Shown one piece after another: positions 2,539-51,378 of a DNA stretch of 64,000 bases. Origin of the DNA: a virus (taxonomy: Duplodnaviria > Caudoviricetes); the IMG/VR virus record IMGVR_UViG_3300025600_000004, positions 15,564 through 79,563 of that record; one strand, written 5' to 3'. Under the pieces are notes generated by a model, which did not search any database, was not told the origin of the DNA, and saw nothing but the letters and a program-made list of their open reading frames with translations. Numbering within the stretch: the stretch's first letter is position 1; every line of letters begins with the position of its first letter. The translations under genes and the position numbers were made by a program.

Positions 2539-2964
2539 ATGGCAACCGACACTCGTACAGAGGAATACCTAGGAACATTGGAATATGTGTTAGACAAGGA
2601 TACCAAGAAGAAACACTATGTGTATGCAATGGAGTCCAGGGATTACCTTAAAGTCCAAGCACTTTTCAAGAAGATCGATGTTGAGTATATCATAGCTAAC
2701 TACCCATGTCCTTTATTGGATGACGATGGCAACCTAGCATTAAGCGAAGCTGGCGAAGAAATCATGAGCACAGAGAAATTCGATGCTATGCAAGAGCTAC
2801 TTGAGATCGCACTGAAGGAGCCATGGAATATCACTGAGTCATGGATTACAATTCGGCAAATCGAAGAAGTCCTGCATATGTTTCAAGGACTCAGTGGACT
2901 ACTTGTAAAAAAGCGTCGTCTGGAGCAGGAGATTTTGACTTCTGGGTTCTCTGTGCAAGCCTAG
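2539..2964 (+). CDS. Tail assembly chaperone (G-like, short form)
   Basis: Between major tail and tape measure; carries A-AAA-AAG slippery site in frame. Confidence 0.85.
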   Translation: MATDTRTEEYLGTLEYVLDKDTKKKHYVYAMESRDYLKVQALFKKIDVEYIIANYPCPLLDDDGNLALSEAGEEIMSTEKFDAMQELLEIALKEPWNITESWITIRQIEEVLHMFQGLSGLLVKKRRLEQEILTSGFSVQA

Positions 2965-3137
2965 TACAAAATACTTCGATGACTCCAGATGACGTAGGCA
3001 GACTTAGCATCCCTCATATAATAGCATTGATTGATGCCTTTGGGGAGGCGAACAAAGACTCAGATAGCCAAGGAGATTCCAAGAATTCATTACACGACAG
3101 TGATGCCTTTAAGTATCTCATGGACAATCCAATGTAA
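2539..3137 (+). CDS. Tail assembly chaperone long form (GT-like) via -1 programmed frameshift at 2907-2913
   Basis: gtA AAA AAG at 2907-2913; the -1 frame stays open to 3137 (ASSGAGDFDFWVLCASL...MDNPM). Confidence 0.8.
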
Positions 3138-3151
3138 AGGACGGTGATCCA

Positions 3152-6100
3152 ATGGCAGGCGACGGTATCATACGCACATCCATCGTAGTCGATAATACCT
3201 CAGTAAAATCAATGATGCAATCCATCAAAGAACTCAAAGCAGCCGTAGCAGACCTTAAAGCCCAAGGCAAAGGCTCTGCAACGATGTTCAACGGTGAACT
3301 CGCAGGTGTCAAAGAATTACAGGGAGTCATCAAGCAACTCCAGGCTGATATGAAGGCATTGCGTAACAACGCATCCCCAGGCAAATCCAATGTCACTAAA
3401 GGCGTCAATGATGCTGTAGATGAAACCTCTGCAAAACTAAAGACTCTCCAAGCCAAAGTCAGAGAAGCAATGGTCGCTGCGGATAAAGCATGGCAGAGTG
3501 GCAGTGGATTCAAGACAGCCAAGGATAGCTTTGGTAATGCACTGAATCAACTCACGGCATTCAAAAGAGACCTTGGAACTCTATCGATTGGTCAAGAGAA
3601 ATCATTGTACTCCAACCTTCGCAGAGGACTCGATGAGGGCTCCGCATCTGCTAAGGTGCTCACTGAGCGCATCAAAGAATTAAATGCAGAAACAGCAAGG
3701 AATAAAGCCATAGACTCTCCGAAGGTCGCCAAGGTGGAAAGCATTAATTCATCACAAATAACCGATGGAATCAAACAGGCCAAGCAAAACATCCTTGCCA
3801 TTGATAGGCAAATATTTGAACAACTTCAGAAAAACAATGGCGCAGAGACTCAAAGGACAGCGGAGTTGCGTAGACAAAAGGCAGAACTGGAGTCGCAAGT
3901 CAATGCGTTGAAAACTCCAAAGACTGTTCCAAGTTACCAAGGGTACACTCAGCAAATCAGTGCAGCTAAAGCCAAAACTGAAGAACTATACCAAGTGATG
4001 TTAAGGACTAACAACGCACAATCCAAGTTGGATTTCGCCACTGCAAGGACAGGGCTTATGTCAACAATTAAGGAATCCAATGCGTTCAATGCATCACTTG
4101 GCATCGGTATAGATAGAGCTGGTGGACTTGGATCTCTTATGCAAAAGCTCCGTTCGCACACGAATTGGATCATCGCTGGTGGAATGATCAGCGCGGCCGT
4201 AGGAATTCCAATGGCGTACATTAGCACACTCAAAGAAATCGAAGTAGGCATGGCGGGTATTTCTCAGGTACTCCCTGCTGTCCATGGAAACCAAGTAGCA
4301 TTAAATCAAGTATCAAGGGAATTCGTAGGCATCGCACAGGAATACGGTGAATCCGTCAATGGAGTTATCGAAGCTGGAAAATTATGGGGACGAGCGTACA
4401 AGGATATCCCAACACTCATGGCATTCACCTCAGCATCGGCAAAGTTAGCAGTTGCAGATAACTTCGGACTCGCTGAATCTAACAAAGCCCTCGAAGCAAC
4501 ACTCGCACAATATGAATGGAGAGCAAAGTCTGCAGCGGAGGCTACTGCGTACTCAATGAGAGTCGTGGACACATGGACTGCTGTGGCACATAATGCACAA
4601 GTATCAGCGCAGGATCTTGCAATGGCGAATGAAAGAACCGCAGGTGTAGCAAGGATGGTTGGTGTGGAGTTCGAATTTCTCCAGGCGATGGTCGCTGCTG
4701 GCGTAAAAAATACTGGAAGATCGGGACAGGAAATCGGCAATACTTTGAAAACCGTCTTCGGATCAATTCATAGTGACAAAGCAGTCGGTGAAATCGAAGC
4801 CATCGGTGTAGCTATGAAAACCACTGCTGCCGATGGAACTCAGAAGTGGCGTAAAGTTCAAGATGTCATCGTTGACTTAGCCATAGCTACCAGAGCAACA
4901 ACTAAGGATGTCGAAGGATTATTCAAAGCTGCTGCGGGTGGGAAGTTCCAGTGGGCAAAGTTTTCCTCTATGCTTGACTATGATGAACTTATAAAAGTCT
5001 ATGCTATTGCAGTAAACTCCGCTGGTACAACCGAGAAACAAATTGCTATGCAAATGGATACAATCTCAAGGAAGGTCGAACAACTCAAAGCAACCATGGT
5101 GGGTCTCACGACAAATTCAGGTGGTACATTAGCTAAGTTCATCAAGGATGCTATTGATAACTTCTCAAGATTCATCAATATATTAAACAATGTTTCAACT
5201 ACGACATATACAGTGGCATCTAAGATGCTCGGTGCTGCACTGGTAGTAGCTGCGGGTGTCAAAGTATGGCAACAGCTTGGCATAGTACTGGGAATATACA
5301 GAGGTGCTCTCTTAGCATCATCCGTAGCGACCAATGTAAATACTGCATCCCAAGCATTAAACACTGGAGCTCAGATATCTGGTGCTATGGCTCAAGGTGC
5401 TAAGACTGGGGCATCAGTGGCTAACACCGTAGCAACCAATGTAAACACTGCTGCCCAAGTAAGGAATGCCATAGCTACTACGATTGCCACTGGAGGTCTT
5501 AACCTTATCATTCCAGTTCTTGCAGCATCAGCCATAGCATTAATGGGATATTCTGCGGTGACTGGGGATGCAACGAATTCCACAGATAAACTAGGTAGAT
5601 CATTGGATGACCTTGGTAAAATGCAGGAAGAAACTGGAATCAAAGAAAACCTGATCCAATCATTGAAGCAAAGGTATGACTATGTAGACACTCTTACTAA
5701 TGCACACGATAAATTGACTATAGCACTATCTAAGGAGTCTGAGGGTAGTAAAGAATACAATAAATTGCAGAAGAGTCTTGGAGCAACACAAGAACAACTC
5801 GCGAACATCGTTGGTGTCACCACTGGAGAGATAGTACAAGATGGAGTCCTTCGGATGGACTTGATTAACCAAGAGAAAACCAATATGGAAACCAAGGCAG
5901 AGGGGATCAAGAAGGAAATCTCTAATCTCAAAGTCGCACAGATAAAATACACTGAGCAATCCATACAATCTGCTCAGGATCGCATTGATGCGTTGGGAAC
6001 TGAAACTAAAGCATGGGGACTCCTTGCACAAGCTCAGATGTGGGCAATGGAACAATATGCTGGTGTTATGGATCTACAGATAGCAGCCAAGCAATTCATC

Positions 6101-45649: not shown

Positions 45650-46132
45650 ATAGGAACAAAGAAAGCACCGAAACCCAAAGCTCCTAAGAAAACAAAGTGG
45701 GCCAAGGGTCAACGTAGTATCAAATGTGAATACGATGGCATCAAGTTTGACAGCGAACTTGAGCGAGATTTTTTCATTGAACTCCTACGGAGGAAAGACG
45801 CGGGGGAATTCGTAAGCGTAACCTTGCAGCCTAAGCTAGTCCTGCAGCCAAAGTTCAAACGCGATGGTAAAACAGTGTTGCCTGTGACATACTCCCCAGA
45901 CTTCCTCACTATTGACAAAGATGGGACAAAGGTGTACTGGGATGCGAAGGGGCAAAGTACCCAACAAGGGGACCTAAGGCGTAAGCTGTACCTCTACCAG
46001 TATCCAGAGGAATTACGATGGATTACAAAGAGTCTGAAGTATGCTGTGGACGGTGATCCATGGGTTGACTATGATTATGTCCAGAAATGTCGTAGACAGG
46101 CGAAGAAAACTAAGAAAGGATCGGTGGCATAA
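45650..46132 (+). CDS. DUF1064-like PD-(D/E)xK endonuclease (resolvase candidate); ATA start 45650 (track uses TTG 45824)
   Basis: YDGIKFDSELE lies upstream of the first canonical start; LQPKF, YSPDF, WDAKG. Confidence 0.75.
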   Translation: MGTKKAPKPKAPKKTKWAKGQRSIKCEYDGIKFDSELERDFFIELLRRKDAGEFVSVTLQPKLVLQPKFKRDGKTVLPVTYSPDFLTIDKDGTKVYWDAKGQSTQQGDLRRKLYLYQYPEELRWITKSLKYAVDGDPWVDYDYVQKCRRQAKKTKKGSVA

Positions 46133-47291: not shown

Positions 47292-48992
47292 ATGAATGTA
47301 GCACAGCGTATCGATGAATACATAGCGAGATCGGGGAGTCGTGCAAAGGAAAACGCCAATCAATCCTTTAGTTATCCAGGGATGCTAGGGTATCTACTGG
47401 GTTTCGTAACATCTGAGTATGCACTGGATCGCATATATCCCAAGGCTGCCCAGGAACTCCATGAAAAAGCCCAAATACACATCCATGACATGTCTGGGTT
47501 ATGCTGTTACTGCTATGGAATGGACTATGAGATGGCACTGGATCAAGGAATCCAAGGGGAGTCAGAGCCTCCTAAGCATTTCGAGACTGCCTTGGGTCAG
47601 ATGGATACATTGATATTCCAGATAGCAGGGCAAATCGCTGGAGCCGTAGCAATCAATAGTCCCGATGTACTCCTTGCTCCCTACATTAAAAACGATGGAC
47701 TCACATACAAACAGGTGAAGCAATGTATCCAACAGTTTATCTACCGCATCAATGCAAAACTAAGGCAAAACTATGAAGCACCATTCAGCAACTTCCAGCT
47801 AGACCTCACAGTTCCTAAGAGACTACGAGGGAGAACACCAGTCATCGCAGGGCAAGCTATGGAATTCCATTATGACGATTGCCAACAAGAGATCAACTGG
47901 TTTAACACAGCACTCATTGAAGTCATGATGGAAGCAAAGCGTATCCTGCCATTCCCAGTGTTGAACATGAGCATCACCAAAGACTTCAACTGGGACAACA
48001 AACTCGCTGAAACAATGTTTAAAGGCATCGGAAGCATGGGATTACCAGTGATTAATAACTATGTTAACAGCGACTATGACCCTGATTCAGTGAAGTCCAT
48101 GTGTTGTTCGCTAAGGCTTGACATGAGTAAACTAATGAAGTCCAATGGTTCCTTTGGCTCCAATGACAACTCTGGTTCCATAGGTGTTGTCACGATTAAC
48201 CTTGCACTCATGGGTTACCTAGCAGAAGGCAGTAAAGCAATGCTTCTAGGTAATATCAGAGATAACATGTATGTAGCAGCGGAGGTCTTGGAAAACAAGC
48301 GTGAATTCATTGAACACTGGCACTCCATCGGAATGTATCCAAGGCTTCAACAGTTCATCACAGACTTTCATAGTTTCTTCAGTACCATCGGCATCGGTGG
48401 AATGAACGAGATGTGCCTTAATTTCCTAGGGAAGGGCATTGATACTGAGGAAGGCATAGAACTTTCCATAGAAATACTGGACTATATGAATGATATCCTA
48501 GCAGAACTACAGGAACAAAGCACTCATTGGTATGGTGGCAGAGGAGTCTATTGGAACCTTGAGTCCACGCCACTCGAAGGAGCAACCCGCAGACTTGCAC
48601 AGCAAATGCATAAGTATTACCCAGATGCTGTGACGAGCAATGGATCAAACCAAGATTACATCACAAGGGGAACTCAGTTACCAGTGGATGTGAAGTACAC
48701 TTTGAAGTTTGCTACGGAACATCAGCAAAAACTACAGGATAAACTGAGTGGCGGTGCTAACTTTGCTCATTATCTAGAAGCCCCAATAGATGACTGGAAG
48801 GTTACACGGAGCATCGTCAAGCGCATCGTGAACAATACATCGTTGCCCTTTGTATCCATAAGTCCCATGGTTGCCATATGTCCAGTGTGTAATCAAAGAG
48901 TCAGCGGAGACACCTGCGAGCACGATGTTTCACAGTATGAACTTGATGAGCTGCTGAAACAGGGAGTCCAAGTAGAGGAGGTGATTCAATGA
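47292..48992 (+). CDS. nrdD: Class III anaerobic ribonucleotide reductase large subunit lacking the glycyl-radical loop
   Basis: IHIHD, CCYC, NYEAPFSN, FPV, SMCCSLRL, GSIGVVTINL, FSTIGIGG, NLESTPLEG, LSGG, CPVC; no RxxGY. Confidence 0.9.
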   Translation: MNVAQRIDEYIARSGSRAKENANQSFSYPGMLGYLLGFVTSEYALDRIYPKAAQELHEKAQIHIHDMSGLCCYCYGMDYEMALDQGIQGESEPPKHFETALGQMDTLIFQIAGQIAGAVAINSPDVLLAPYIKNDGLTYKQVKQCIQQFIYRINAKLRQNYEAPFSNFQLDLTVPKRLRGRTPVIAGQAMEFHYDDCQQEINWFNTALIEVMMEAKRILPFPVLNMSITKDFNWDNKLAETMFKGIGSMGLPVINNYVNSDYDPDSVKSMCCSLRLDMSKLMKSNGSFGSNDNSGSIGVVTINLALMGYLAEGSKAMLLGNIRDNMYVAAEVLENKREFIEHWHSIGMYPRLQQFITDFHSFFSTIGIGGMNEMCLNFLGKGIDTEEGIELSIEILDYMNDILAELQEQSTHWYGGRGVYWNLESTPLEGATRRLAQQMHKYYPDAVTSNGSNQDYITRGTQLPVDVKYTLKFATEHQQKLQDKLSGGANFAHYLEAPIDDWKVTRSIVKRIVNNTSLPFVSISPMVAICPVCNQRVSGDTCEHDVSQYELDELLKQGVQVEEVIQ

Positions 48993-49108
48993 AAATCGCA
49001 GTAAAAGCTAAGAAGTACATTCGCGTCGTAGGGTACTACAGTGAGGCATCCAATCTTAACAAAGGTAAAGCTCAGGAACTCAAAGATCGTCAATGTTATT
49101 CTAACTAA
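48989..49108 (+). CDS. 39-aa stand-alone NrdD glycyl-radical peptide (not in track)
   Basis: MKIAVKAKKYIRVVGYYSEASNLNKGKAQELKDRQCYSN; GGAGGTG RBS; ATGA overlap with nrdD stop. Confidence 0.85.
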   Translation: MKIAVKAKKYIRVVGYYSEASNLNKGKAQELKDRQCYSN

Positions 49109-49163
49109 TCTTAGATATGGCAAAGGAACCAAGTGCAATCCTTGGTTCCCAGATGGAGGAACA

Positions 49164-49610
49164 ATGAATATATCACCATTACTCTTTGACTGTACTCAAG
49201 GGTACGATGGGACAGCAGTGGAAATCTATGTATCAGGGTGTACTCGGAACTGCAAAGGTTGCCATAATCCACAAATGCAGAGTTTTAACCATGGAAAAGA
49301 ACTATGGTACTCTGATCTTATCCAAGAACTCAATGAACACAAAGAATGGTTCGACATCATCAGTATACTCGGTGGCGATCTAATGTGCCAAAACCTCTTT
49401 GATGCAGCGACATTCACTAAGATATTACATAGGAAATTCCCAGACAAAAAACTCTGGTTATTCACTGGAGCAGAGTTGTCAGAGGTTCATGGTTTTTTCT
49501 TAGAGCATTTTGATGTCATTAAGACTGGGACATACGAAGAATCCCTTCGGCAATCCACTGGGCTGGCATCGTCAAACCAGAGATTAAACATGAAAGGCAG
49601 TGATTATTAA
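49164..49610 (+). CDS. nrdG: Class III RNR activase (radical SAM)
   Basis: SGCTRNCKGCHN CxxxCxxC, ISILGGD, WLFTG, DVIKTG, SSNQR; GGAGG before ATG 49164. Confidence 0.92.
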   Translation: MNISPLLFDCTQGYDGTAVEIYVSGCTRNCKGCHNPQMQSFNHGKELWYSDLIQELNEHKEWFDIISILGGDLMCQNLFDAATFTKILHRKFPDKKLWLFTGAELSEVHGFFLEHFDVIKTGTYEESLRQSTGLASSNQRLNMKGSDY

Positions 49611-49789
49611 TGAATGAACTTCAACTCATGGCAGTCGCAGGGCTCAAGAGAAATTTTGAAACCTATGGCAAACCATTCTGCCCATGCTTAAATCCATCGT
49701 TATTCACTCAGCCAAACTCCGATGACTATATATGTAAATGCAAGGAATTCAGAGAGGGCAAAGGATGCCATTGTGGGTTACATCTATGA
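49610..49789 (+). CDS. 59-aa ferredoxin:thioredoxin reductase catalytic-chain-like protein (not in track)
   Basis: YGKPFCPC...DYICKCKEF...GCHCGL; ATG overlaps nrdG stop. Confidence 0.75.
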   Translation: MNELQLMAVAGLKRNFETYGKPFCPCLNPSLFTQPNSDDYICKCKEFREGKGCHCGLHL

Positions 49790-50778: not shown

Positions 50779-51378
50779 ATGATAACAACCATTGGCAAAC
50801 TATGCACAGACTGGGTTGATGTCAAGAATAAATGCAGAGTCACAGTGAATAAATCAGAGTCCTCCATAGAAGCAACCGAGCTATTCAAAGAGAAGCTGTT
50901 GATATCTGAGCATAGTCCCATTAGACTACTTCGGATCTCATGGAAATGGGCATTGAAGTACTGGCTATCCACTGAATTCTCTCGGCATCACATAGGATGG
51001 GAGAAGTGGATTAGTACACAGAGGGATGACAGGACTGCTACGAACCGCAATGCATCTCCCCAGGATACAGAGGTGGCAATGGCAGTCGAAGCTAATGCAC
51101 AGGCACTTATCAATGTAGCGAGGGTTAGACTATGTAATGGCAGTGCTCACCCAGAAGCCAGAGCACACATGGAGTCATTGAAACGAACATTGTACGCCCA
51201 TGAGCCTGAGATTGCCAGTGTCATGCAGAAGAATTGCGTGTATAGATGTGGATGCCCTGAGTTTGTCCCATGTGGGTACTGGGATGGCTTCGTACAGAGG
51301 CATCTTGGGCTTAACATGTGCGACATCGGTGCGAGGTATCGAGCTGTTAACTATGAATTTCTAGGAGGTAAACAATGA
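50779..51378 (+). CDS. thyX: Flavin-dependent thymidylate synthase-like protein
   Basis: EHSPIR, STEFSRHH, STQRDDR, NAQALINVARVRLC. Confidence 0.8.
   Translation: MITTIGKLCTDWVDVKNKCRVTVNKSESSIEATELFKEKLLISEHSPIRLLRISWKWALKYWLSTEFSRHHIGWEKWISTQRDDRTATNRNASPQDTEVAMAVEANAQALINVARVRLCNGSAHPEARAHMESLKRTLYAHEPEIASVMQKNCVYRCGCPEFVPCGYWDGFVQRHLGLNMCDIGARYRAVNYEFLGGKQ

Follow-up and report, generated by a model that had tools for sequence, protein, structure and literature searches.

A class III ribonucleotide reductase encoded in two pieces, with an autonomous glycyl-radical peptide, in a phage and its relatives

The class III ribonucleotide reductase (RNR) of the phage described here is encoded by two genes, a large nrdD piece carrying the catalytic domain and a gene of 39 codons carrying the glycyl-radical loop, and this split is kept throughout the clade to which the enzyme belongs, in varied reading frames and at varied distances. 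The two genes are conserved and are inherited together, and the complete genomes hold no fused copy, which bears out the original prediction of a genuine two-gene enzyme with an autonomous glycyl-radical peptide. We consider it likely, with good confidence, that the two products form an obligate two-chain class III RNR, NrdG activating the peptide as the subunit that bears the radical.

Gene layout and anatomy of the two pieces

The window, i.e. the whole 64,000-nucleotide stretch that was analysed, belongs to a virus record (G000) that is complete at 79,563 bp and has direct terminal repeats. The large piece of nrdD (47292..48992, + strand, as are the peptide gene, nrdG and the mini-protein gene below) encodes 566 amino acids comprising the catalytic barrel and a predicted zinc site, and lacks the glycyl loop: the Pfam NRDD profile (PF13597, 562 positions) matches it over profile positions 1-525 (E 3e-105), and the chain stops there, in agreement with the first reading of its C-terminus. 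The glycyl-radical peptide gene (48989..49108) encodes 39 amino acids including an RVVGY loop and the conserved residues behind it, the loop glycine being codon 15 (49031-49033). It has a Shine-Dalgarno sequence of its own, GGAGGTG (48977..48983), which lies inside the tail codons of nrdD at a spacing of five bases from the ATG, and the TGA stop of nrdD (48990-48992) overlaps that ATG (48989-48991) as ATGA, placing the peptide ORF in the -1 frame. The coordinates and features that had been given at the outset, among them the 39-codon ORF with its own ribosome-binding site and overlapping start, are correct, as the ORF list and the DNA confirm. The NRDD profile matches the small ORF at positions 534-562 (E 2e-5) with a score of 23.9 bits, under the family cut-off of 26.2 because the peptide is so short, and among Pfam matches at E ≤ 1 it was the only family, with no match to Gly_radical. 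Combined, the two ORFs amount to one NrdD, with only about eight profile positions missing at the break.

Downstream lies nrdG (49164..49610), encoding a radical-SAM activase of 148 aa (Fer4_12 E 1e-21, Radical_SAM E 7e-6), followed by a gene for a 59-aa ferredoxin:thioredoxin-reductase-like (FTR-like) mini-protein (49610..49789; FeThRed_B E 1e-7), a possible electron-delivery partner that may belong to the same module. A perfect 9-bp hairpin with a 7-nt loop and without a T-run is present between the peptide gene and nrdG (49125-49149), this region folding no better than shuffled sequence (z -0.93). A gene for a DUF1064 protein (45824-46132) lies near the RNR genes, and a 199-aa ORF further downstream (50779-51378) has a weak match to ThyX (Thy1; E 3e-5, just under the cut-off); the ThyX-like ORF, the DUF1064 gene and the RNR genes form a nucleotide-metabolism and replication module. 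Elsewhere, at the viral locus L027 (3659-6304), a single 882-aa protein has, besides an ATP-cone and a full NrdD, a glutaredoxin-like domain with an FTR-like cysteine motif behind it (FeThRed_B E 0.002), its C-terminus being matched by the 59-aa ORF of the window in BLASTP (E 2e-6). These sequence similarities suggest that a ferredoxin-linked reductant chain may serve the NrdDs of the MCC type.

An AlphaFold2 model of the large piece (pLDDT 83.4, pTM 0.84) superimposes on known NrdD structures from phage T4, P. copri, S. thermophilus and T. maritima with Z-scores of 29-34, reaching Z 33.6 with an rmsd of 2.7 Å over 459 aligned residues for T4 NrdD (1h78) and Z 29.5 for T. maritima (4coi), and the structural alignment spans the large chain up to the zinc region. 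The finger loop carries a double cysteine, C271 and C272 (48102..48107), and both residues, together with C74, are invariant in 21 clade members. We take C74 (in beta-A) and the finger-loop cysteine to correspond to C79 and C290 of T4, matched by position, and C271/C272 is presumed to be the thiyl-radical site facing the glycine. Finger loops with such a double cysteine have been described as the MCC motif class (PMC9669993). Finger-loop residues 273-287 have a pLDDT below 50 in the model, which was made without the peptide, and this poor predicted confidence is consistent with the docking of the peptide that is proposed below.

The predicted zinc site, a Cys3His set consisting of C530, C533, C542 and H544 (48879..48923), lies at the end of the large piece, as had been noted; it had also been called partial, a description that does not hold, all four residues being invariant in the 21 members. 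Fused relatives have CxxH/C...CxxC at this position. Beyond it, residues 545-566 (48924..48989) make up a clade-specific C-terminal tail, a short helix (548-556 in the model) followed by a short extended stretch (557-566, modelled as coil with a pLDDT of about 58), which is conserved in all 28 clade homologues and has no counterpart in fused NrdDs. In total the break carries about 24 residues beyond those of fused NrdDs, divided between this tail and the N-terminus of the peptide, where the added part is a short lysine/valine-rich strand. We propose that the peptide docks on the tail of the large chain. Residues 611-644 of T. maritima NrdD, a protein of 651 residues, are matched by the peptide profile, so that the peptide corresponds to roughly the final 40 residues of an ordinary NrdD.

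Conservation, co-inheritance and independent splits

A search of 5.8 billion proteins for homologues of the large piece returned, as its 28 closest matches (46-89% identity), proteins that without exception stop at the same point: a CxxC is followed at a distance of eight or nine residues by CxH, and a conserved tail of about 22 residues completes the chain. The next tier, at about 40% identity, consists of fused NrdDs with the glycine loop. Megablast of the region against GenBank phages gave no match, and the nearest annotated phages, an Oceanotoga phage and Clostridium phage phiCTP1, have fused enzymes about 37% identical to it. Among named organisms, the closest to have a member of the clade is the Negativicute Anaeroselena agilis, from which a related large piece at 48-49% identity (P0024) is recorded, known here from the protein alone. 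Five members (P0005, P0014, P0018, P0023 and P0027; 714-978 aa) contain inteins inside the large piece (Pfam intein, LAGLIDADG/homing-endonuclease), and these are unrelated to the break. Outside the clade, a 675-aa protein with an ATP-cone (P0088, 41% identical) has a tail very like that of the clade, placed after a first knuckle of the CxxH type, and may represent either an intermediate on the way to the split or a lineage sister to it.

DNA of clade members was taken from viral and metagenome contigs, and a small loop-encoding ORF was present in every clade locus for which downstream sequence was available. Its placement varies: at L001/L073 the small gene overlaps nrdD by TAATG in a frame different from that of the window, at L069 the overlap is 14 nt with a GTG start, at L071 the small gene lies about 1 kb downstream and at L002/L072 it lies 1.67 kb downstream with six ORFs between. 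At no clade locus were nrdD and the peptide ORF seen in one frame, and in all six related loci, even where nrdD is far away, the peptide gene has a strong ribosome-binding site in front of it, equivalent to that of the window. The intervening DNA at L002 and L071, which represent two early-branching lineages of the clade, includes a gene of the SPFH/Band_7 family preceded by small hydrophobic ORFs (L002 1564-2433 and L071 2876-3715; 279-289 aa), the L002 copy matching the Pfam family at E 4e-25 and the L071 ORF resembling it by eye only. L002 also has nrdG, and between its peptide gene and nrdG there are four tandem paralogous small ORFs (2848-3876; 77-98 aa) with similar C-terminal ends.

The peptide is called as a gene in several metagenomes. 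A profile built from six peptides retrieved 21 called small proteins from the 5.8-billion-protein set (E 3.5e-18 to 1.6e-7), far more than chance would give, and against a representative set of 1.84 billion proteins it gave 13 proteins at E ≤ 1e-10 and 1960 hits at E ≤ 0.001. Detached NrdD-type glycine peptides are thus common in public data, since among the best 150 clusters (50% identity) matching the profile 147 are proteins of 130 residues or fewer that begin at a start codon. Within the clade, ten columns of the peptide are invariant across six lineages, between which synonymous sites are saturated (dS saturated in 13 of 15 pairs).

Eight large-piece/peptide pairs, compared in 28 combinations, show the identity of the peptide rising and falling with that of the large piece (r = 0.88), and the two genes are therefore inherited together. 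When viral contigs were scanned with the peptide profile, the peptide type of the clade was found only in L001 and L002, in both cases beside its own large piece, and no lone copy of it was found in that scan. Three complete records were searched whole with the NRDD profile, namely that of the phage itself (G000), an 81-kb provirus (G001) and a 66.8-kb genome with terminal repeats (G002), and each contains one large piece, one peptide and no fused NrdD. Because these three phage genomes hold no fused enzyme, their sequences argue that the peptide is a regular radical-bearing subunit and not a spare.

On viral contigs there are also ORFs of about 55-140 aa encoding a glycine loop of the NrdD type that have no NrdD closer than 10 kb (L216/L217, L219, L225, L226, L228-L231 and L234), which are lone copies of peptide types other than that of the clade. 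In one 76-kb record estimated as 89% complete (G003), the peptide match is the only one, with no NrdD match in the whole record.

The history of the split was examined in a tree of 91 NrdD sequences (530 columns before the zinc site, IQ-TREE quick search), in which the 18 rows of the clade are monophyletic with an SH-aLRT of 100 and a long stem; in this quick-search tree, branches are long near L040, the only fused neighbour of the clade. Split NrdDs of Treponema, of Rhodoferax and other Burkholderiales, and of the DPANN archaea Micrarchaeota/Iainarchaeota sit elsewhere among fused ones, and the starred branches force at least five changes between the split and fused states. On the evidence of these sequences the split is old in the clade and arose separately from at least four others in NrdD. 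All share one topological point: in the Treponema, Rhodoferax, Micrarchaeota and Iainarchaeota proteins too, the break falls between the zinc site and the strand leading to the glycine loop. The other lineages differ from the clade in what was added at the junction, and their small pieces keep one cysteine of the zinc site, whereas the peptide of the clade keeps none.

Each of these other splits has its own form. On the chromosome of Treponema sp. HNW (L138 5566-8303), where the split is independent, a 711-aa NrdD ends in a long charged helix and the next ORF (179 aa) encodes a helix, the glycine loop and then a glutaredoxin-like domain, followed by nrdG; the helices on the two pieces look like a coiled-coil clasp, and six other Treponema loci share this NrdD tail. 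In Rhodoferax and other Burkholderiales (L151 5614-7901; L166, L170, L193, L199 and L205), where the split is again independent, NrdD has 694 aa and ends behind the zinc site, and its gene overlaps by ATGA with a 68-aa ORF containing one leftover cysteine and the glycine loop, again followed by nrdG; the Rhodoferax junction has low-complexity linkers. In Micrarchaeota (L135 5098-7860 and L136), a 71-aa ORF for the glycine loop continues in the frame of NrdD after a stop and 12 nt, which is either a true split or read-through.

The proposed two-chain enzyme and its alternatives

We infer from this arrangement an enzyme that assembles from two chains, with the tail serving in docking, and that is activated by NrdG and active in nucleotide reduction. 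The 566-residue chain would provide the ten-stranded barrel, the finger-loop cysteines and the Cys3His zinc site, and the 39-residue chain only a strand, the glycine loop and a short helix. Both would be translated separately, with the ATGA overlap coupling them so that roughly equal amounts are made in the phage of the window. The chains would then assemble without a covalent bond, the loop of the peptide entering the barrel beside the finger-loop cysteine while the extra strand at the N-terminus of the peptide probably pairs with the large-chain tail and is held by it. NrdG would abstract a hydrogen from the glycine, and the radical would pass to the cysteine for nucleotide reduction, as in an ordinary NrdD. 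The activase of pyruvate formate-lyase (PFL) accepts short peptides bearing the glycine motif, and a 39-residue substrate is therefore chemically plausible.

The alternative that survives best, though we regard it as rather unlikely, is that the peptide is a sacrificial cartridge, in which case the split would be adaptive: oxygen would destroy only the 39-residue chain, this would dissociate, and a fresh peptide together with NrdG would re-arm the intact 566-residue body. Cleavage by oxygen at the radical glycine and the rescue of PFL by GrcA are both established (PMC13450708; PMC12288474), and the very high frequency of detached peptides in the protein sets, as well as the origin of the split at least five times at the same point, a recurrence that hints at some advantage, speak in the same direction. 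Recurrence at one point can equally mean, however, that this is the sole break the fold tolerates, and coupling by ATGA implies synthesis at 1:1 and not a surplus of spare peptide. As for a spare part in the manner of GrcA, which had been suggested for the peptide, it conflicts with the single large piece, single peptide and missing fused NrdD of the three complete phage genomes.

Markedly less probable is that the phage peptide also complements or repairs the NrdD of the host. Unrelated NrdD-type peptides do occur on viral contigs without an NrdD match in the record, G003 being an example, and the related split NrdD recorded from A. agilis could be taken in favour of such cross-repair. Against it, the peptides of the clade are found only beside their own large piece and diverge along with it, so the earlier suggestion that the peptide can also repair host NrdD is not sustained, and the large-chain tail and the N-terminal strand of the peptide are both specific to the clade.

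A programmed -1 frameshift at the ATGA overlap, giving a single fused NrdD, is very improbable. The peptide ORF does lie in the -1 frame with GGAGGTG just upstream, as at some frameshift sites, but the DNA of the window contains no X XXY YYZ slippery heptamer before the stop, confirming what had been read from the junction, every small gene comes with a start codon and a ribosome-binding site of its own, and relatives have it in a different frame or, with other genes in between, at a distance of 1.0-1.7 kb. Least probable of all, to the point of being negligible, is an indel introduced in sequencing or assembly, or a pseudogene in decay. Changing a single base could join both frames, yet the same end point and tail recur in 28 independent database proteins down to 46% identity, the catalytic and zinc residues are invariant and the approximately 24 extra junction residues are absent from every fused NrdD. 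Where the small gene sits behind an SPFH/Band_7 gene neither a frameshift nor an indel can explain it, and both frameshift and error are thus effectively excluded.

Two candidate causes of the break were also rejected. A split intein would have only about 22 residues after the zinc site and about eight before the conserved strand of the peptide, which is too short, and neither piece has a Pfam intein match, the inteins of other members lying elsewhere in the gene. The class I RNR split of phage Aeh1 was made by insertion of a homing endonuclease; here, the genes that intervene at L002 and L071 are small ORFs and the SPFH/Band_7 gene, with no recognisable endonuclease among them.

Comparison with known enzymes and significance

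The two-chain enzyme that we propose shares with canonical NrdD and NrdG systems (T4 1h78/1h7a; T. maritima 4coi/4u3e; P. copri 8p23) the fold, the MCC-type finger-loop cysteines, the position of a predicted zinc site before the glycine loop, the glycine-loop motif and the radical-SAM activase, which is adjacent here. It differs from them in that the last ~40 residues with the radical glycine are a separate gene product, so that the loop would be supplied in trans, in that its predicted zinc site is Cys3His and not four Cys or CxxH...CxxC, in the absence of an ATP-cone, and in the tail of ~22 residues and extra N-terminal strand of the peptide that are added at the break. By sequence, then, it would be a variant class III RNR architecture and not a canonical member.

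Small free-standing proteins with a glycyl-radical loop, activated by the activase of a partner enzyme, are known in GrcA/YfiD of E. coli and in Y06I (vs.6) of phage T4, the latter being of the PFL type and a phage-borne precedent (PMC1524935), and the peptide resembles them in this respect. GrcA, however, is a member of the Gly_radical family, of the PFL type, and its partner enzyme already has a glycine of its own, whereas the phage peptide is of the NrdD type and would be the sole source of the glycine. According to a 2026 review, spare parts are known only for formate lyases, the other enzymes being undetermined in this regard (PMC13450708); the other literature that was searched likewise describes free-standing glycyl-radical proteins for PFL alone. 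Split RNRs have been described in class I, in the alpha subunit of phage Aeh1 (alpha-a and alpha-b), and in class II, in NrdJa/NrdJb of P. aeruginosa (PMC3267527; PMC9669993). In both of these cases the catalytic subunit comes from two genes whose products form a non-covalent complex, as we propose here, but the breaks lie elsewhere and the radical-bearing element is not detached, unlike in the phage NrdD. No description of a split NrdD was found in the freely accessible full-text literature that was searched.

In that literature the radical glycine of glycyl radical enzymes is always on the catalytic polypeptide, and the split class III RNR would make the glycyl-radical element a subunit in the full sense. 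Many nrdD annotations marked as "truncated", and many small ORFs overlooked in the genomes of phages, bacteria and archaea, are also explained by the split. For studies of activation by NrdG, the 39-residue peptide would constitute a natural minimal substrate that can be synthesised and isotope-labelled, and its being separate makes repair after oxygen damage a directly testable question. If the cartridge explanation were true, a phage in a micro-oxic or fluctuating habitat would regain dNTP synthesis without remaking the 566-residue enzyme, and this RNR would be the first glycyl radical enzyme besides PFL to follow a spare-part logic, here built into its normal architecture.
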